Part shown: piece by piece, positions 1,510-10,210 of the stretch
Numbering within the stretch: the stretch's first letter is position 1
Layout: each line of letters opens with the position of its first letter
UHGV virus genome: UHGV-1591674
Reading direction: 5' to 3' (one strand)
Length of the DNA stretch: 11,865 bases
DNA from: a virus
Program-made: the position numbers and the translations under genes
The notes under the pieces: model-generated
What the model was told of the DNA's origin: nothing
What the model saw: the letters and a program-made list of their open reading frames with translations, nothing else
Database searches by the model: none

Positions 1510-2531
1510 GTCTTGATGCCATGCGCTGGGCTAAGAAAGCTAAAACGGGTCGATCGTCTGCCAAGTCAGTTCTGACCTGGATGGCGGACATGTGCGGCGC
1601 AGACTTTACGACATACCCATCAATTGCGGCGCTTGCCGAGGCGACAGAACTGGATAAAAAAACCGTCCAGGCCAGCCTGCAGCATTTGGTGGAAAACGGT
1701 TTTATCCAGGATACCGGAGAGCGCCGCGGACGCACAAAGCAAATCCCCGTTTACAAGCTGGTGGGCGTTGAGGAAAGCATCGAAGACGCAGAACGAACCC
1801 AAAAACGGGAACATTACCAAAAACGGGACACTTTAAAGAAACCCAAAAACGGGACTGTTAAACCAAACGCCCCCAAAAACGGGTGTATTAAAAGCGGTGA
1901 AACGATCCCGTTTTTTCCGTCAAACGATCCCAAAAACGGGATACGGAATCCCCCAGAGGAATCAAAAGACTTAAACCCCACACATAACGCGCGAGAGTCA
2001 GAGGTCGAACCAGTTAACAACAACCCGGTTCCTGAATACCCCGGACAGCCTGGTATGAATTTTCCCGCCGGAGAGTCATATGGGAAGGTCCCAATGACCA
2101 TTGACTGGAAACCGTCGGCTGACTTTCGCCAGCGTGTTGGATTCTGGGGCATAACGATCCCGGATGGACTGAACCTCAGAGCCGAGCTGAACAGCTTCAT
2201 TGCCTACTGGCAGCCAGAGAATAAAGTTTTTTACCAGTCGCAGTGGGAGCAGAAATTTGCCCGCCACCTGCAACAGGCCAAACCCACTAAACCGCGAGGT
2301 AACTCACATGCTGGACTGGATCCAAACTCCACAGCAAACGCAGCTGTACAGCGAGCACGCGCAGCACGCGCTGCACAACTCCGCGCTCGAGGAGAAGGCG
2401 TGGAAGTTCTGGGTTCTCATGCTGGAAATTTACTCCAGCCGATGGGAAACCAAAAACGGATCGGCTCCGTCGGACCTATGGATTGCTCAGATTGGGAATT
2501 TGACCAGCGACCGGATGACGAGCGTCTGTAA
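1506..2531 (+). CDS. Phage replication initiation protein (N-terminal winged-helix/HTH, C-terminal DnaT-like domain)
   Basis: 341-aa ORF. The N-terminus (MSLDAMRWAKK...LVENGFIQDTGERRGRTKQIPVYKL) resembles phage replication-protein HTH domains; the C-terminal region (IDWKPSADFRQRVGFWGI...FIAYWQPENKVFYQSQWEQKFARHL) resembles the DnaT-like ssDNA-binding domain. Iterons lie inside the gene. The last ~75 codons are low-complexity and overlap the P-like gene, so the true 3' end is uncertain. Confidence 0.8.
   Translation: MSLDAMRWAKKAKTGRSSAKSVLTWMADMCGADFTTYPSIAALAEATELDKKTVQASLQHLVENGFIQDTGERRGRTKQIPVYKLVGVEESIEDAERTQKREHYQKRDTLKKPKNGTVKPNAPKNGCIKSGETIPFFPSNDPKNGIRNPPEESKDLNPTHNARESEVEPVNNNPVPEYPGQPGMNFPAGESYGKVPMTIDWKPSADFRQRVGFWGITIPDGLNLRAELNSFIAYWQPENKVFYQSQWEQKFARHLQQAKPTKPRGNSHAGLDPNSTANAAVQRARAARAAQLRARGEGVEVLGSHAGNLLQPMGNQKRIGSVGPMDCSDWEFDQRPDDERL
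1799..1941. repeat. Origin-of-replication iteron array (5 direct repeats of CCAAAAACGGGA plus one inverted partial copy)
   Basis: Direct copies at 1799-1810, 1817-1828, 1843-1854, 1873-1884 (last base T) and 1930-1941. Inverted partial copy TCCCGTTTTTT at about 1906-1918. Each direct copy encodes a PKNG/KNG motif in the initiator protein. Same architecture as lambda ori inside gene O. Confidence 0.65.
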
Positions 2532-2970
2532 CGCGATGGTTGCTCGCTGTGCGGCGGGTAATTCATGGCCACCTGACCTGGCCGAGTTCGTGACGCTGGT
2601 GGCTGACTGTGACGGTGGGAAGCTTGGACTGAAGGTTTCGGACGTTATGGCGGAATACAGGAACTGGCGCAACGAATCTTACCGTTACGCCAGCACTGAG
2701 GAATATTTCATTGACCGCAAATGTAATCCGGTCCTGTACCAGATTTGCACCGAACTTCGCCGAACTGGTGTTGAGCGACAAATGACCCAACCCGAGCTGG
2801 AGAGACTGGCTGCGGACCAACTGGTGAAGTGGGAAAAACACCTGGAGGATGGCAAGCCGATCCCTCCGGTAAGAAAACAGATTGCGGCGCCGCGCCATCC
2901 GGCAGGACCGACACCCGCGCAGCAGCTGCTTGAAGAATACAAACGCCGTAAAGCGGCTGGCTTAATTTAA
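2308..2970 (+). CDS. Replication protein P-like (DnaB helicase loader)
   Basis: The C-terminal region ELERLAADQLVKWEKHLEDGKPIPPVRKQI parallels lambda P ELRRKAADELVHMTARINRGEAIPEPVKQL, and the central WVL...MTSVCNAMVAR region parallels lambda P. Start set at ATG 2308 (GAGG at 2296-2299); the track ORF opens at 2200 but those codons look like out-of-frame readthrough of the upstream gene. ATG 2419 is an alternative start. Confidence 0.75.
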   Translation: MLDWIQTPQQTQLYSEHAQHALHNSALEEKAWKFWVLMLEIYSSRWETKNGSAPSDLWIAQIGNLTSDRMTSVCNAMVARCAAGNSWPPDLAEFVTLVADCDGGKLGLKVSDVMAEYRNWRNESYRYASTEEYFIDRKCNPVLYQICTELRRTGVERQMTQPELERLAADQLVKWEKHLEDGKPIPPVRKQIAAPRHPAGPTPAQQLLEEYKRRKAAGLI

Positions 2971-2983
2971 CCTGGAGAGTTTT

Positions 2984-3646
2984 ATGGAAACCATTTTAGA
3001 CGTACTGAAAGCGATGGAAAAAGCGACTGCCCGTGAAATTGCGGCACGTATGAAAATTGAGCCTGCGGCGGTGATCGGGATGCTGCGTGAACACGAAGAA
3101 CGTAACGAGGTTATTCAGGTTAACGGGTACTGGAAAGTTGCTACCGGGGAAGTTAAATCACAGCCTAACGCGATCAGTTCTGTCAGCAAAGCGCCGGCAA
3201 GTGTATCAGTCAGCGACGTCATCGCATTACTGGCGGAACATGGGCCACAGACATCACTTGAGCTGGCAACACTGGCAGGTATTGAGTCAAAACGTGTGGC
3301 GCCAATGCTGACTCACCACATGACAAAAGGGCGGATCATCCGCGAAAAAGTAGGCAGCAAGTTTGTTTATTCGGTGCCGGCCACTGCGTCAGTGAAAAAC
3401 AAAAGCTCCGCACCACGGGAACCGGAGGCATCAATTCCACCGGTACCAGAAAAATCTGTCACTGAAATTGTTGAGGAAATCCCCGCTTTCGTCAGCCGTC
3501 CTGATGATCTGCTGATCCCAACGGTGCGCGGCATCTCAAATGAAATTCGTCGCACAAAAGCGAAGCTGGCTAACCTGGAAAAACTTCGTGAAGCCGTTCG
3601 CAGCATTCGCAAACACGGCGCGCTGATGCAGGAGCTGGCGCAATGA
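2984..3646 (+). CDS. Hypothetical phage early protein with N-terminal winged-helix-like domain (possibly DUF1627-type)
   Basis: 220-aa ORF, GGAGAG upstream of ATG 2984. N-terminus METILDVLKAMEKATAREIAARMKIEPAAVIGMLREHEE is wHTH-like and paralogous to the N-terminus of the 4085..4339 product. Stop overlaps the next start (ATGA). Confidence 0.8.
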   Translation: METILDVLKAMEKATAREIAARMKIEPAAVIGMLREHEERNEVIQVNGYWKVATGEVKSQPNAISSVSKAPASVSVSDVIALLAEHGPQTSLELATLAGIESKRVAPMLTHHMTKGRIIREKVGSKFVYSVPATASVKNKSSAPREPEASIPPVPEKSVTEIVEEIPAFVSRPDDLLIPTVRGISNEIRRTKAKLANLEKLREAVRSIRKHGALMQELAQ

Positions 3647-3867
3647 AACAGTCTGAGTTAACGCGCTGTCCGACCTGCGGAAATATGCCCGAATACGCGC
3701 TAAAGCCAAACCATATGGGATGGGTATGGGGTGGATTGAAATGTCCGTATGACCATTACCGCGTGAATTTGGATGGTCCAGCCGGTAGCCGCGTGCAGGC
3801 AGAAAAAAAGCTGGCGCCACAGTGGATTGAACTGGTCGAAAAAGTTAATCAGGAGAAATCAGCATGA
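3643..3867 (+). CDS. Small zinc-ribbon-like protein, possibly Lar-family restriction-alleviation protein (tentative)
   Basis: 74-aa ORF translationally coupled on both sides (ATGA overlaps). CPTCG near the N-terminus and CPYDH later resemble the CPFCG-type zinc ribbon of Lar-family proteins. Weak call from memory. Confidence 0.6.
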   Translation: MKQSELTRCPTCGNMPEYALKPNHMGWVWGGLKCPYDHYRVNLDGPAGSRVQAEKKLAPQWIELVEKVNQEKSA

Positions 3868-4088
3868 AAATCGCTTACCAGGACTATGGGGCCGTGGCGA
3901 AAATCGTTATCACCAGTACCGCATTTGAGTTTCGTAAGCATAATCGGGTGGTTGATACCTCCCTGATCTGCACGCCAGGAATAGTTGCAAACCGTAGTGG
4001 AATGTTCTTCATGAAGTCGGTTTTGTCCGGTAAATCCCGCGACATGCTGCGTGCGTACAAAACAATACTGCGGGAGGAAAGACGATGA
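3864..4088 (+). CDS. Hypothetical small phage protein
   Basis: 74-aa ORF, ATG 3864 overlapping the upstream stop, stop overlapping the next ATG at 4085. Sits in a co-directional coupled gene chain. No recognisable motif. Confidence 0.6.
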   Translation: MKIAYQDYGAVAKIVITSTAFEFRKHNRVVDTSLICTPGIVANRSGMFFMKSVLSGKSRDMLRAYKTILREERR

Positions 4089-4339
4089 CTATATTCGAAT
4101 ACATTCAGTCTCACCCAAATACCACCAGCAGTGAAATAGCCAGGAGCATGAATAAAAACCCTTCTTCAGTCTCGGGCATGCTGTCACAACTCTACAGTGC
4201 TGGTCGGATCGTAAAGTCTGGTGTTCGCAGGGGTGTCCCTGCATACCGTGTTAACGATATGCCGTTTGGGTGCAGTAACAGCTTAACCATGATGTTTAAC
4301 CAACTATTGAACAGAGCCAGACAGGGAGCTGCACAATGA
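4085..4339 (+). CDS. Hypothetical winged-helix DNA-binding protein
   Basis: 84-aa ORF. SSEIARSMNKNPSSVSGMLSQLYSAGRI parallels the wHTH segment of the 2984..3646 product. Translationally coupled on both sides. Confidence 0.7.
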   Translation: MTIFEYIQSHPNTTSSEIARSMNKNPSSVSGMLSQLYSAGRIVKSGVRRGVPAYRVNDMPFGCSNSLTMMFNQLLNRARQGAAQ

Positions 4340-4680
4340 GTAAATCTCTGAACGCACGTTGCATCCGTCGCTGGACCGTCGAATTTAAAGGCCGCTGCGA
4401 TTCAAAATACAGTCCGTACTGGCGTAAGCACCACCTTCGCAGTTACATCCGGGAATGCGCCCTGACCACCGCTGATTGCATGGTCGAGCGTATGGCTGAG
4501 GATAATGCGATGGTAGATTTTCAGGGGGCTAATCGAGGATGGTCGCCGGAGTTCTCTGCCTGGTACCACGAACGCCGTGAACAGTATCTCAAAGAGGCGC
4601 GCGACTATCTGAACGAAGACGCCACCAATGACGAGATCGACGAGGAAATCCAGAACGAGCTGGAGGCCTGGAATGACTGA
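4336..4680 (+). CDS. Hypothetical phage protein with acidic C-terminus
   Basis: 114-aa ORF, ATG 4336 overlapping the upstream stop. Acidic C-terminal tail NEDATNDEIDEEIQNELEAWND. Confidence 0.7.
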   Translation: MSKSLNARCIRRWTVEFKGRCDSKYSPYWRKHHLRSYIRECALTTADCMVERMAEDNAMVDFQGANRGWSPEFSAWYHERREQYLKEARDYLNEDATNDEIDEEIQNELEAWND

Positions 4681-4876
4681 GCTGAATTATAACCCGGCAG
4701 ACCCCGATAAAATGCAACTCCCGAAGGGTAAGACCTGCGGCGACTGCGCCCATATCCGTCGCTGTAAGGCAATTTTCGGGCATACCGAAACCGATGCCTA
4801 TTGCGATTGGTCGCCGTCCCGAGCGGTTTTCCGTCAACCATCGAATCCAGAAGGCGGTGACCATGCGATTAATTAA
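4673..4876 (+). CDS. Hypothetical small Cys-rich protein (putative zinc-binding)
   Basis: Start taken at ATG 4673, which overlaps the upstream stop (ATGACTGA); the track ORF opens at 4628. Product MTELNYNPADPDKMQLPKGKTCGDCAHIRRCKAIFGHTETDAYCDW carries a CxxC-x5-C...C pattern. Confidence 0.55.
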   Translation: MTELNYNPADPDKMQLPKGKTCGDCAHIRRCKAIFGHTETDAYCDWSPSRAVFRQPSNPEGGDHAIN

Positions 4877-5105
4877 CCGAGGCAACCAGCAATCCCCGTT
4901 AGCGCGTCAGGCATGCGACATAGCACTGGCCACTCATGCAGAACGTTACGGCGACTATGGCCGCAGCAAGATGAAGGAGACATACACGGTGAGAGTTGAA
5001 GGCGTGAAGGTATGGGTTGAGGTGGTGAACCGTAAGGCGAGCTACGTGGCCACAGCAATGACAGGTATGCGCCGGTTGCGCGCACTTCCGGGTCAGGTTT
5101 CTTGA
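4863..5105 (+). CDS. Hypothetical small phage protein
   Basis: Start taken at ATG 4863 (14-nt overlap with the upstream gene); the track ORF opens at 4794. Its 3' end (5062-5105) overlaps the open methyltransferase-like reading frame. Confidence 0.5.
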   Translation: MRLINRGNQQSPLARQACDIALATHAERYGDYGRSKMKETYTVRVEGVKVWVEVVNRKASYVATAMTGMRRLRALPGQVS

Positions 5106-5214
5106 TATTCGCGCCGAAGAGCACGAGCTGTGCGACGGTCGGCGCCTGGTTATCAGTCCCGACCTGATTTCAGACTTTCGTTCACTGCCGTTCGCTGATT
5201 CTTCTTTTCCAGTT

Positions 5215-5493
5215 GTGGTGTTTGACCCACCGCATCTCGAGCGCGTTGGCCAGTCTGCCTGGATGGGTAAAAAATACGGGCGACTGAACAAAAAAACGTG
5301 GCGCTCTGACTTACGCGCCGGTTTCAAAGAGGCTTTTCGCGTACTGCGGCCACATGGCGTGCTCATATTCAAATGGAACGAGACGCAGATCCCGGTTAGC
5401 CAGATTCTGGCGCTTACAGATGTGAAACCTGCAATTGGTCAGCGTACCGGGAAGAACGACAAAACCCACTGGATTATTTTTGTGAAGGACTAA
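5215..5493 (+). CDS. DNA methyltransferase-like N-terminal fragment (amino-methyltransferase motif IV DPPH; probably truncated or pseudogenised)
   Basis: Product carries SSFPVVVFDPPHL (DPP[YFH] motif IV) and AGFKEAFRVLRPHGVLIFKW (the RVLKPGG-type motif of beta-class N6/N4 methyltransferases), but no FxGxG AdoMet motif. Only 92 aa from the first canonical start (GTG 5215, no Shine-Dalgarno). The frame is open upstream to 5062 with methyltransferase-like sequence. Confidence 0.55.
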   Translation: MVFDPPHLERVGQSAWMGKKYGRLNKKTWRSDLRAGFKEAFRVLRPHGVLIFKWNETQIPVSQILALTDVKPAIGQRTGKNDKTHWIIFVKD

Positions 5494-5496
5494 CTC

Positions 5497-5877
5497 ATGG
5501 CAACTAACAACCACCCGGCGCAAGGTCCTGTATCTGTCGATCGCCTGCACCAGATAAGCGAAATACTCAGCAAAGCAGCAGCACAAAGCGACGGCGGTAA
5601 TCTCGGCTACGCAATGGCTGATGCTGTGAAGGTTATCGACGAGTTGCTGTCGGTGCGGAAGACGGCGGCGCAGGAAGCGGTGTATCAGGTATTAGACGAT
5701 GGAAGTTGGACTGATTACAGCAAACAGCAACTGGAGGTCCTGCTTGAATCGAAACCATCCACACTTTTCCGAGTTGCCTACCCATCTCCAAGTTTAACGC
5801 AGCCAGCGCCGGTAGTGGATGATGCTGTGAAGGTGATTGAATGGGTGCTTGAAGCGAGGAATGCGGGGTCGGAATAA
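5497..5877 (+). CDS. Hypothetical phage protein with internal duplicated motif
   Basis: 126-aa ORF. GAAGGA seven nt upstream of ATG 5497. Internal repeat ADAVKVIDELL / DDAVKVIEWVL. Followed by an intrinsic terminator. Confidence 0.7.
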   Translation: MATNNHPAQGPVSVDRLHQISEILSKAAAQSDGGNLGYAMADAVKVIDELLSVRKTAAQEAVYQVLDDGSWTDYSKQQLEVLLESKPSTLFRVAYPSPSLTQPAPVVDDAVKVIEWVLEARNAGSE

Positions 5878-6011: not shown

Positions 6012-6794
6012 GTGACAACAAAGAATCGACACGGTCTTTCTCGGCAAGTGCCTGCAGAGGTTAAACGAGTTATCAGGCAAAGATGTGGATTTGGCTGCGT
6101 GATCTGTGGCTTCGGATTCTATGAGTACGAGCACTTCGATCCAGATTTTGCTGATGCTACCGAACACAACCCTAATGGAATGACATTGTTATGTTCTCAA
6201 TGTAACCAGAAACGAGCCAGGGGCAGACTGTCCGCTGAAAAGGTTGCTTCAGCTAATGCTCATCCTAAGTGCCTTCAACAAGGGTTTGCGAATGAGCTTT
6301 TTGATTTTCATAGCGAACCATTGGAAATAGTTTTGGGTGGATTAACGTTCTACAACTGCGAGCACCTTATAGTAGTAAATGATAGGCCTATCTTGTCTGT
6401 TCAGTCATCTCCTGAACCAAACTCTCCAATGTTACTCTCGGGAGTATTCTGCGATGTACTAGGAAGGGAGATGTTAAGAATCCATGAGAATGAATGGTCT
6501 GTTAATTTAGATAATTGGGATGTTGACTGTGAGGGGCCGAGAATAACCATTAGAAGTGCTCCCCGTCAGATTGCCCTTGTTTTGAAAATGAATCCCCCGA
6601 GGGGAATAATTGTAGAGCGATTAGACATGACTTTTGAGGGGGTAAGATTTATAGGGGATGAGCAGAACTTGCGATTTACTATGGATGGAAGTAACTGGCA
6701 TAAGTGGTCTGGCTGCTCAATGAGGAACGGCTATGTAGGTATAGCCATTGAGACTAGGCCAAGAGCGGCAAACGATCCTATGTATATATTATGA
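6012..6794 (+). CDS. HNH endonuclease-domain protein (N-terminal zinc-finger HNH, C-terminal domain of unknown function), AT-rich acquired gene
   Basis: 260-aa ORF with GTG start at 6012. N-terminal motif RCGFGCVICGF...YEYEHFDP...HNPNGMTLLCSQCNQKR fits the CxxC...H...N...CxxC HNH fold. Hand-sampled 60-nt lines give about 40-47% GC against about 60% in a flanking phage gene. Preceded by a terminator. In frame with the downstream methyltransferase fragment, separated by a single TGA (6792-6794). Confidence 0.8.
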   Translation: MTTKNRHGLSRQVPAEVKRVIRQRCGFGCVICGFGFYEYEHFDPDFADATEHNPNGMTLLCSQCNQKRARGRLSAEKVASANAHPKCLQQGFANELFDFHSEPLEIVLGGLTFYNCEHLIVVNDRPILSVQSSPEPNSPMLLSGVFCDVLGREMLRIHENEWSVNLDNWDVDCEGPRITIRSAPRQIALVLKMNPPRGIIVERLDMTFEGVRFIGDEQNLRFTMDGSNWHKWSGCSMRNGYVGIAIETRPRAANDPMYIL

Positions 6795-6806: not shown

Positions 6807-7061
6807 TTGTTAATACTGCAACCACATGAGCTTTACCGTGCTCAGGGCTTCCCTGAGTGGTACATCATTGACCAGGACTATCGGGGCAAGAAGTACGCAA
6901 AAGACAAACAAGTTGCCCGCTGTGGTAACGCCGTACCACCGCCGTTCGCTGAAGCGCTGGTCCGGGCTATTTACCGGAGCTTTGTCAGCAGAAAGAAATT
7001 GCAGCTTAATGTCCGAGTTTCAGAGCAGGGTGTAACAAATCCTGCTACTTCAATGACGTAG
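6807..7061 (+). pseudogene. C5-cytosine DNA methyltransferase C-terminal fragment (motifs IX and X only)
   Basis: PHELYRAQGFPEWY and RCGNAVPPPFAEALVRAI correspond to C5-methyltransferase motifs IX (LQGFP) and X (GNAV), matching the C-terminus of the full enzyme at 8717..10210 (RLQGFPD...AIGNSMAVPV). No motifs I, IV or VI precede it. A second diverged copy of its 3' end lies at about 7452-7580. Confidence 0.55.
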
Positions 7062-8273: not shown

Positions 8274-8417
8274 GTTGGGTTATACTCAACACGGGTCTGA
8301 ACAGCCCGCTGAGTAACACTGCGCCAACCGGGAAAACGCGATGGCGCATAAAACTGAATTACCCCATTCACACCGTTCCTTCGTGAGCGGTGTCGCTGTT
8401 TGTGCTGGTGGTGCAGC

Positions 8418-8720
8418 ATGAGCAGATCAAAGACCAAAGCCGAAAAACTTCATCTTTCCCGCGTAGCCGGGCTGGGTTGTATTGTCTGCAAAAACCTGAA
8501 GCTGGGTGAAACCCCAGCAGAGATACATCACATCCGAACTGGCCAGGGAGTTGGCCAGCGCGCTGACAATTTCAAAGTTATTCCTCTTTGCCCAATCCAT
8601 CACCGTCAGGGCGGACACGGCATAGCCATTCATGCTGGCCGCCAGTCCTGGGAAAACAATTTCGGTACTGAAACAGAGTTGCTGGTGCAGGTTCTCTACG
8701 AACTGGGGGAATCAGCGTGA
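8418..8720 (+). CDS. Ref-like recombination-enhancement HNH-type nuclease (small phage HNH protein)
   Basis: Start at ATG 8418 (GGTGGTG upstream). Product contains CIVC...EIHHIRTGQG...CPIHHRQGGHG, a CxxC/HH pattern typical of Ref-family HNH proteins. Stop overlaps the GTG start of the methyltransferase (GTGA at 8717-8720). Confidence 0.65.
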   Translation: MSRSKTKAEKLHLSRVAGLGCIVCKNLKLGETPAEIHHIRTGQGVGQRADNFKVIPLCPIHHRQGGHGIAIHAGRQSWENNFGTETELLVQVLYELGESA

Positions 8721-10210
8721 GTATTACTTATGGTTCAGTATGTAGTGGAATTGAGGCTGCAAGTATAGCGTGGGAGGTTTTGGGCTGGCGACCGTCATGG
8801 TTCTCTCAGTTCGATCCTGAACACAATTATAAAAACGGTCCAGATTTCCCATCCGCTGTTCTGGCGTATCGCTGGCCGCACGTAACAAACCTCGGTGATA
8901 TGACCAAAATCGCTGCAGCAATACGGCGCGGAGAAATCCAGGCACCAGACATTCTGGTTGGTGGCACACCGTGCCAGGCATTCAGCATCGCTGGTTTGCG
9001 CAATGGTCTGACTGATTCCCGCGGTCAATTAACTCTCGCCTTTGTAGAACTGGTAAACGCAATAGATGAAAAACGAAGAGAACAGGGAAAACCTCCCGTC
9101 ATTGTCGTCTGGGAAAACGTACCCGGAGTATTCAGCAGCAGAGATAACGCTTTCGGATGTTTTCTTGCAGGGCTTGCCGGCGAAAGCCGTGAACTGGAAT
9201 CACCAGGGCGAAAATGGACAAACGCTGGTTATGTGCTGGGACCAGAAAGGGCTGTCTGCTGGCGAGTGCTCGATGCTCAATTTTTCGGAGTGGCCCAACG
9301 ACGCCGCCGTGTGTTTGTTGTCGCAAGCGCTAGAACCGATATCGATCCCGCAAAAATACTTTTTGAGTCCGAAGGCCTGCGCCGGGATACTCCGCCGCGC
9401 CGAAAAGCGGGGAAGGGCATTACCGCAAATACTGGGCGTCGCATTGCTAACGGTAGCCACTGGGATGGGGAATATAATCCACATCCAACCCTCAACCAGT
9501 CACACAACATTGGGGGCATAGGTCAAAGCAACCAGGAATTATTCAGCCAGCGCGGAGGTGGAATCGTTGGTGTCTTTCGCATGCGGGCATTTGGTGATTA
9601 TGTTAATGATGAAACCTCATCCACTGTTAAAGCGCGCGACCATAAAGATGCAACCGATCTCACTGTCACTTATTCGGACGTCAGCAGGACATTGCTTGCC
9701 AAATCTAATGACAGCATGGCTGAAGATTTGGATACATATGCCATTCACGGCACACAAGACCCTGGCACGCTCAAAGACATGGCTCATACACTGGGGCGCA
9801 ATCATGGGCAGGAGAATGCCGTTGCTTATGCATTCAAGGCTGGTCAGGGTGCAAAAGCTGGTGGCATTGGCTGGGCAGAGGAACAATCCCCGACACTGAC
9901 TGCCGCCAGCAGTGGATCGAATTTATCCCCTTCAGTGATGAAAAATATGACCGTTCGCCGCCTGACGCCTGTCGAATGCGAGCGCCTGCAGGGCTTCCCC
10001 GATAACCACACTTTAATCCCCCGGGGTAAGCGCAAGCAGATTACGGCGGATGAATACGCCTATGTGCGCCACCACAACCCAAAGATAACAGCAGAGGAAG
10101 CCTACCGACTGGCGAAAGATGGTCTGCGCTACAAAGCGATCGGCAACAGCATGGCCGTACCGGTTATGCACTGGATCGGTAAAAGAATTAAGGAGGCTCT
10201 TAATGCCTGA
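8717..10210 (+). CDS. DNA (cytosine-5)-methyltransferase
   Basis: 497-aa ORF carrying motif I (GSVCSGIEA), motif IV (GGTPCQAFSIAG), motif VI (VVWENVPG), motif IX (RLQGFPD) and motif X (AIGNSMAVPV). About 245 aa separate the ENV region from motif IX. Translationally coupled to the upstream Ref-like gene and to rusA downstream. Confidence 0.9.
   Translation: MSITYGSVCSGIEAASIAWEVLGWRPSWFSQFDPEHNYKNGPDFPSAVLAYRWPHVTNLGDMTKIAAAIRRGEIQAPDILVGGTPCQAFSIAGLRNGLTDSRGQLTLAFVELVNAIDEKRREQGKPPVIVVWENVPGVFSSRDNAFGCFLAGLAGESRELESPGRKWTNAGYVLGPERAVCWRVLDAQFFGVAQRRRRVFVVASARTDIDPAKILFESEGLRRDTPPRRKAGKGITANTGRRIANGSHWDGEYNPHPTLNQSHNIGGIGQSNQELFSQRGGGIVGVFRMRAFGDYVNDETSSTVKARDHKDATDLTVTYSDVSRTLLAKSNDSMAEDLDTYAIHGTQDPGTLKDMAHTLGRNHGQENAVAYAFKAGQGAKAGGIGWAEEQSPTLTAASSGSNLSPSVMKNMTVRRLTPVECERLQGFPDNHTLIPRGKRKQITADEYAYVRHHNPKITAEEAYRLAKDGLRYKAIGNSMAVPVMHWIGKRIKEALNA

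Follow-up and report, generated by a model that had tools for sequence, protein, structure and literature searches.

The open stretch at positions 5104-5493 (+) of the 11,865-nucleotide viral sequence analysed here (UHGV virus genome UHGV-1591674, below referred to as the window) is very probably a recent 5'-truncated pseudogene of a 157-residue phage class I SAM-dependent methyltransferase. It comprises codons 29-157 and the stop codon of a gene belonging to PHROG 954, and it differs from the intact gene in prophage locus L024 by a single nucleotide, at position 5288. At the protein level, residues 29-157 encoded by the window differ by one amino acid from P0001, the closest of the intact homologues. 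The remnant matches phrog_954 over positions 77-201 (E = 5.6e-67), the intact protein over positions 50-201. The 92-residue ORF from GTG 5215 (5215-5493, +), which was reported on 13 contigs, is a gene-caller artefact on this remnant and had no match in Pfam. Its annotation should be replaced by that of a pseudogene at 5104-5493, derived from a class I SAM-dependent methyltransferase and missing the N-terminus, and the phage should not be credited with this methyltransferase activity.

The window had drawn attention because a frame encoding a DPPH motif is open well upstream of its first canonical start codon. This was borne out, the +1 frame being free of stop codons over exactly 5062-5493, with GTG 5215 as the first ATG, GTG or TTG codon in frame. 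The preceding ORF was also described correctly as ending with TGA 5103-5105 and containing ATG 5067. The initial annotation further regarded the translation upstream of GTG 5215 as methyltransferase-like. This view holds for 5104-5493, but not for the stop-free 14 codons at 5062-5103 (+, 'QVCAGCAHFRVRFL'), which are not methyltransferase sequence but result from reading the 3' end of DUF4060 in another frame. The probability that 14 consecutive codons are free of stops by chance is about 0.5 ((61/64)^14 = 0.51), and no significance therefore attaches to the part of the open frame that extends beyond 5104. Likewise, we examined and rejected 'QVCAGCAHF' (5062-5088) as a degenerate motif I (xVCAG), because this peptide is the out-of-frame C-terminus of DUF4060, and DNA homology to the methyltransferase begins only at 5103.

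The methyltransferase family to which the remnant belongs is very large, as two protein searches yielded 1,588 and 7,858 hits. Among the matches listed, full-length members mostly have 157-170 residues (157 in the case of P0001). These are small phage or prophage proteins annotated as 'class I SAM-dependent methyltransferases', and they correspond to PHROG 954, 'DNA methyltransferase'; DNA is the putative substrate according to the computational annotation of that PHROG family. A literature search for the DPPH motif in phage methyltransferases retrieved nothing, and no experimental characterisation of the family was found. In the homologue alignments, the intact proteins begin with M, 3-5 residues and then ILDMCCGSRMFWFNKQDTRAVFTDIRAEEH, a segment that is at least 90% conserved, and their nearly invariant N-terminus can be written as ILDMCCGSRMFWF.K.D.RAVF. 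Position 1 of Methyltransf_25 aligns to residue 6 of the intact homologues. In contrast, the translation of the window matches the family only from D29 (position 5104) onward. The stretch missing from the remnant comprises β1, the glycine-rich SAM loop and β2, all of which show conservation of 90% or more within the family. Motif I (β1 and the glycine-rich SAM loop, ILDMCCGSRMFWF), which marks class I enzymes, is absent from the window, and the Rossmann-like α/β fold of the remnant is incomplete. The earlier statement that the product has no AdoMet-binding motif, and on its own is no complete methyltransferase, was right. What the remnant has kept is the conserved C-terminal half and, after β4, the motif IV-like catalytic tetrapeptide DPPH (5224-5235, +), all four residues of which (D69, P70, P71 and H72) are the same in 67 homologues. 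Homologues that are equally short and share a conserved GTG start, which would have made the product a genuine small protein, were not what we found: the homologues have 157-170 residues, and GTG 5215 is their internal codon V66.

A structure of an intact homologue was predicted with AF2. The model reached a pLDDT of 52 with a shallow alignment and of 83 after actinophage relatives had been added. Trm11 (E = 3e-5) and M.TaqI (E = 1.5e-4) were among the best Foldseek matches of this predicted structure, while sequence searches of the PDB gave no significant match and NCBIfam gave none above its cutoffs. M.TaqI, an N6-adenine DNA methyltransferase, and Trm11, an m2G10 tRNA methyltransferase, resemble the intact family in having motif I followed by a motif IV-like DPPH-type element after β4. 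Both are amino-methyltransferases with a (D/N/S)PP(Y/F/W/H) motif, a pattern that the DPPH of the family fits. Like members of PHROG 954 such as P0001 of Citrobacter freundii, gp36 of Salmonella phage vB_SosS_Oslo and gp67 of Gordonia phage Nymphadora, the remnant has DPPH together with the C-terminal half of a Rossmann fold. Unlike these members, it has lost residues 1-28 (β1, the GSRMF SAM loop and β2) as well as a start codon and ribosome-binding site of its own, and it is therefore not a functional member of PHROG 954. The conservation of the family across distant hosts is unusual, the enterobacterial and Gordonia phage proteins sharing about 63% amino-acid identity over the full 157 residues. 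Even at the DNA level, the gene for Nymphadora gp67 (L051, 913-1389) matches window positions 5317-5396 over 80 nucleotides with 82% identity.

The origin of the truncation can be read from the two parental arrangements, both of which are known. Loci of the recipient type, the prophage loci L024-L029, were identified by exact-protein look-up of P0001. The identity of L024 and L025 to the window amounts to 99.4% over 1673-4682 and to 99.1% over 5103-5639. The gene order in loci of this type is that of the window, comprising a DnaT-like gene, a lambda-P-like gene, DUF1627, two 74-residue ORFs, an 84-residue ORF (orf84) and a 114-residue ORF (orf114). Of these, the lambda-P-like gene, DUF1627, orf84 and orf114 lie upstream of methyltransferase sequence in the window as they do in L024. 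In the L024-type loci, orf114 is directly followed by the intact 157-residue methyltransferase gene, the ATG of which overlaps the orf114 stop codon. In answer to the alignment with intact homologues that had been suggested, L024-type loci have one 157-residue ORF here, instead of the two frames seen in the window.

The other parental arrangement is a recT-orf114-orf67-DUF4060-xis-int module of many enterobacterial prophages, to which window positions 4336-5107 (orf114, orf67 and DUF4060) are about 92% identical. This donor module is located between recE/recT and xis/int. Among 5,426 complete Escherichia coli genomes, the left part of the arrangement, ending at 5107, and the right part, beginning at 5103, were each present, but never in combination. 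The gene common to both parents is orf114 (4336-4680, +; phrog_6675 1-114/114, function unknown), which forms the left homology arm. Its identity to L024 is 99-100% over the whole length. With the RecET-type loci, it shares only 76-86% identity in the 5' part but 96-98% at the 3' end. In two relatives with the same junction as the window, L018 and L020, this upstream gene is itself disrupted by a TGG to TAG change at codon 69 (W69*), at the equivalent of window position 4541.

The segment of donor type has a length of 427 nucleotides (4676-5102, +) and replaces 80 nucleotides of the recipient (L024, 3004-3083) that correspond to methyltransferase codons 2-28. In other genomes, it is situated between recT and xis-int. 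The best donor candidate is the IMG/VR locus L033, to which the insert is 97.5% identical (11 mismatches over 4676-5109); the exact donor was not found. The segment carries two genes. The first is a cysteine-rich 67-residue ORF, orf67 (4673-4876, +; phrog_10154, function unknown), which lies within the insertion save for its ATG and is called next to DUF4060 in other genomes too. The second is a complete DUF4060 gene of 80 codons (4863-5105, +), the stop codon of which, TGA 5103-5105, falls inside the right junction. Read from ATG 4863, the latter gene matches Pfam PF13269 over positions 1-74/74 (E = 8.8e-35; score 119 bits, cutoff 21) and phrog_1852 over 1-78/79. An identical 80-residue DUF4060 protein is encoded upstream of xis/int in many genomes; a literature search on DUF4060 returned nothing.

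A comparison at the level of single bases showed that the window follows L024 through 4675, the donor type over 4676-5102, and L024 again from 5103. On the left, the last mismatch to the donor type is at 4611 and the first mismatch to L024 at 4676. The crossover is therewith confined to a 64-nucleotide interval at the 3' end of orf114 (4612-4675, +) that is identical in L024 and the donor-type loci. The ATG at 4673-4675, which is the methyltransferase start in L024, starts orf67 in the window. On the right, the junction coincides with the 7-nucleotide microhomology TGATATT (5103-5109, +), which is common to the donor allele and L024 and includes the DUF4060 stop codon. Here, the donor allele of the IMG/VR contigs reads ...CCGGGTCAGGTTTCTTGATATT followed by acttttgg, and L024 reads ...TTTTCACTGATATT followed by CGCGCC. 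A TTC/GAG difference to the left of this junction was considered as a recombination scar and discarded, as the ...GTTTCTTGATATT allele occurs in 21 IMG/VR contigs with no methyltransferase downstream. Altogether, there is a sharp internal homology boundary at 5103-5109, DUF4060 directly upstream of it, and a parent, L024, that is 99% identical on both sides. The initial annotation had listed a truncated pseudogene among several unranked options, and this option turned out to be the right one, with the 5' truncation now mapped against the intact gene of L024. The suggested frameshifted pseudogene can be set aside, since there is no indel and the 5' 28 codons have been replaced by foreign DNA.

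The course of events that we infer from these comparisons would have started from an ancestral phage with the order orf84 - orf114 - methyltransferase, in which the ATG of the methyltransferase gene overlapped the orf114 stop codon, as is preserved in L024. Recombination with a RecET-type prophage module (recT - orf114 - orf67 - DUF4060 - xis - int) would then have copied orf67 and DUF4060 into this phage. The left crossover was probably homologous, within the 64 nucleotides of identical sequence at 4612-4675, and the right one probably illegitimate, at the 7-nucleotide TGATATT at 5103-5109. The event would have removed methyltransferase codons 2-28, while the ATG and ribosome-binding site of the methyltransferase gene would have passed to orf67. 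Gain of a cassette together with truncation of a neighbouring gene through such crossovers is typical of standard phage mosaicism. As in the mosaic-junction pseudogenes of lambdoid phages, one crossover falls within a 'linker' gene common to both parents, in this case orf114, and a short microhomology within coding sequence is the site of the other. Nothing notable distinguishes the present case from typical mosaic junctions, except that the right junction coincides by chance with the DUF4060 stop codon, which creates the illusion of overlapping genes. The remnant is an ordinary recent pseudogene and implies no new biology. Its value lies mainly in the corrected annotation, and also in its clean resolution as a case of phage mosaicism, with both parental arrangements known and both crossovers mapped to the base (64 nucleotides of homology and 7 nucleotides of microhomology).

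A different explanation would be that the junction is an assembly chimera or an indel artefact, and that the real genome carries an intact methyltransferase gene. The window is 100% identical to the ENA scaffold L014, and it is therefore probably itself a metagenome assembly, which is in favour of this idea. However, exact-protein look-up of the 92-residue product from GTG 5215, which was the only source of known junctions, retrieved the identical junction, base for base, on 13 contigs from at least 10 samples that had been produced by different assemblers (ENA scaffolds, k99 contigs and Logan). In all junction-bearing contigs, the spacing from DUF4060 to the remnant is the same, and positions 4570-5633 of the window are matched with 100% identity. 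Outside this range the contigs are not alike, L015 departing from the window after 5633, and L018 and L020 before 4567. The recurrence on 13 contigs from at least 10 samples means that the junction is not an assembly error. In addition, the difference from the intact relative is a replacement of 80 nucleotides by 427 nucleotides and not an indel. We consequently regard an artefact as extremely unlikely. The junction is real, and several mosaic backgrounds have inherited it. Judging from the one substitution in the remnant relative to L024, it is also recent. A search with a degenerate junction pattern found no match in the species-representative genomes, in IMG/VR or in the JGI metagenomes, and the junction is rare.

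We next consider whether the truncated gene could still be expressed. The pairing of the 3' end of the 16S rRNA with positions -20 to -4 of candidate start codons was computed. For 11 of the 15 accepted starts in the window, this gave values of -5.4 to -10.3 kcal/mol, compared to a window-wide median of -2.5 kcal/mol. In the frame of the remnant, the corresponding values were +0.6 kcal/mol for GTG 5215, -2.1 kcal/mol for CTG 5128 and -5.3 kcal/mol for ATT 5107, the latter codon being located 2 nucleotides after the DUF4060 stop codon and preceded by a weak Shine-Dalgarno-like CAGG. The view that GTG 5215 has no Shine-Dalgarno sequence is hereby substantiated. The sequence GAAGAG was correctly placed at 5116-5121, ahead of CTG 5128, but its proposed role as a Shine-Dalgarno element is not tenable: GAAGAG represents the internal codons E33-E34 and the CTG represents L37 of the intact gene (E33 and L37 being invariant), and the pairing is weak compared to that of most real starts. 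This leaves the option of a non-canonical start unsupported. A start codon with a ribosome-binding site at the conserved position is missing from the remnant, the start of the homologues being ATG 4673, which now belongs to orf67. No promoter-like site was found on the + strand, Rfam had no match in the window, and the antisense ORFs at 4899-5372, 5311-5586 and 4873-5124 had no match in Pfam.

Translation of the remnant might nonetheless be imagined to start at AUU 5107 (by reinitiation of ribosomes that have terminated at the DUF4060 stop codon), at CUG 5128 or at GUG 5215, giving an N-terminally truncated protein with methyltransferase fold and some residual or new role. The frame is intact, ATT 5107 lies 2 nucleotides from TGA 5103-5105 with a pairing energy in the 10th-25th percentile range of the window, gene callers report the ORF from GTG 5215, and the databases contain further N-terminally shortened proteins (P0061, P0092). 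These points have to be weighed against the very weak start codons, the weak or absent Shine-Dalgarno sequences at CTG 5128 and GTG 5215, and the identity of the supposed GAAGAG element with codons of the intact gene. Moreover, the product would be devoid of β1, the SAM loop and β2, the high conservation of which is seen in the alignments from both the 1,588-hit and the 7,858-hit searches, and the junction contigs are identical in the remnant, so that there is no sign of selection. Translation from a non-canonical start is thus very improbable. Low-level translation of the 129-codon remnant specifically by reinitiation at AUU 5107, with a non-catalytic role such as binding the substrate of the intact enzyme, is a very improbable variant; if true, such a low-level translated, non-catalytic remnant would explain several of the N-terminally short forms of the family in databases. 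Most likely, the pseudogene gives rise to no functional protein, because it has no start with a ribosome-binding site and because β1, the SAM loop and β2 are missing. An intact open frame of 129 codons with one substitution offers no decay by which a loss of function could be confirmed, and the frame is probably still open only because the event is recent.

The close arrangement of the two frames also raised the possibility that ribosomes make a programmed +1 frameshift towards the end of DUF4060, by which a single DUF4060-methyltransferase fusion protein would be produced. Indeed, the two frames run open side by side over 5062-5105, and the UGA of the 0-frame directly precedes the methyltransferase frame. 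However, the two frames stem from unrelated genes joined by a recent recombination, so that the parental arrangements already effectively refute this idea: elsewhere, DUF4060 stands alone and is followed by xis, the methyltransferase stands alone as well, and the homologues are single ORFs. The two genes are unlinked in other genomes, which also disposes of the earlier suggestion of a frameshift joining them. Neither a conserved two-frame architecture nor a slippery or hungry site was observed. There is no slippery heptamer or prfB-like CUU-UGA in 5062-5105, where the last sense codon is UCU; by our own reading of the slip geometry, a +1 slip from UCU would put the tRNA on CUU. The fusion would still be without motif I, and searches of the genome, viral and JGI metagenome collections did not retrieve the junction. 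A programmed frameshift can be considered extremely improbable, and the truncated pseudogene is the reading we retain.

Several database proteins represent aberrant forms of the same methyltransferase (P0003, P0061, P0092, P0103 and P0006), and the gene seems to be often disrupted or rearranged. In P0003 (224 residues), an upstream gene resembling Oslo gp37 is fused in frame to the methyltransferase at A25, and this protein also lacks motif I. P0061 (137 residues, start MRAEEH) begins at the residue equivalent to I30; an exact look-up of this protein found no contig. P0092 (120 residues) has a foreign N-terminus on the methyltransferase, and many forms of 248 residues are C-terminal read-through fusions with the downstream gene. 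Inside the remnant in the window, there is an A7 tract at 5290-5296 (codons N-K-K-T). The same tract is A8 in E. coli 2018-10-1CC, where PGAP labels the gene 'frameshifted'. In Salmonella phage vB_SosS_Oslo it is A6, and two ORFs of 126 and 49 residues take the place of a single gene; the loci L003 (2415-2892) and L001 (2914-3389) bear on this tract. The A8 and A6 variants represent either two independent disruptions or sequencing errors at one tract. The wider family does not conserve the A7 tract; many of its members have NKDTW.

Lastly, the nin-like region contains, with the remnant described above, three methyltransferase genes or gene fragments. A second stretch that resembles a methyltransferase remnant is found at 6807-7061 (+), directly after a 260-residue ORF at 6012-6794. 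It looks like a C5 cytosine DNA methyltransferase reduced to its 57-63 C-terminal residues (...QGFPEWY...CGNAVPPP...), with no N-terminal catalytic part, and it matches phrog_23072 over 333-389/400 and TIGR00675 (dcm) over 285-328/329. Gene callers left this stretch uncalled in related loci. The ORF upstream of it has a weak HNH-like N-terminus (phrog_6544; phrog_7785, E = 4e-4). An apparently intact Dcm-type C5 methyltransferase of 497 residues is encoded at 8717-10210 (+; TIGR00675, E = 3e-36), after a 106-residue ORF at 8400-8720 (+); the ORF at the equivalent position in L024 is annotated as a DUF968/RecA-dependent nuclease. Closer to the pseudogene, a further mosaic breakpoint lies inside a 126-residue ORF (5497-5877). 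The L024-type loci lose similarity over window positions 5640-5815 (L024, 3596-3620), where they have a 59-residue ORF instead, and L015 (from its position 1077) diverges completely from window position 5634 on, into DUF551 and DNA polymerase III theta genes. The positions 5634-5640 may therefore be a recurrent recombination point.
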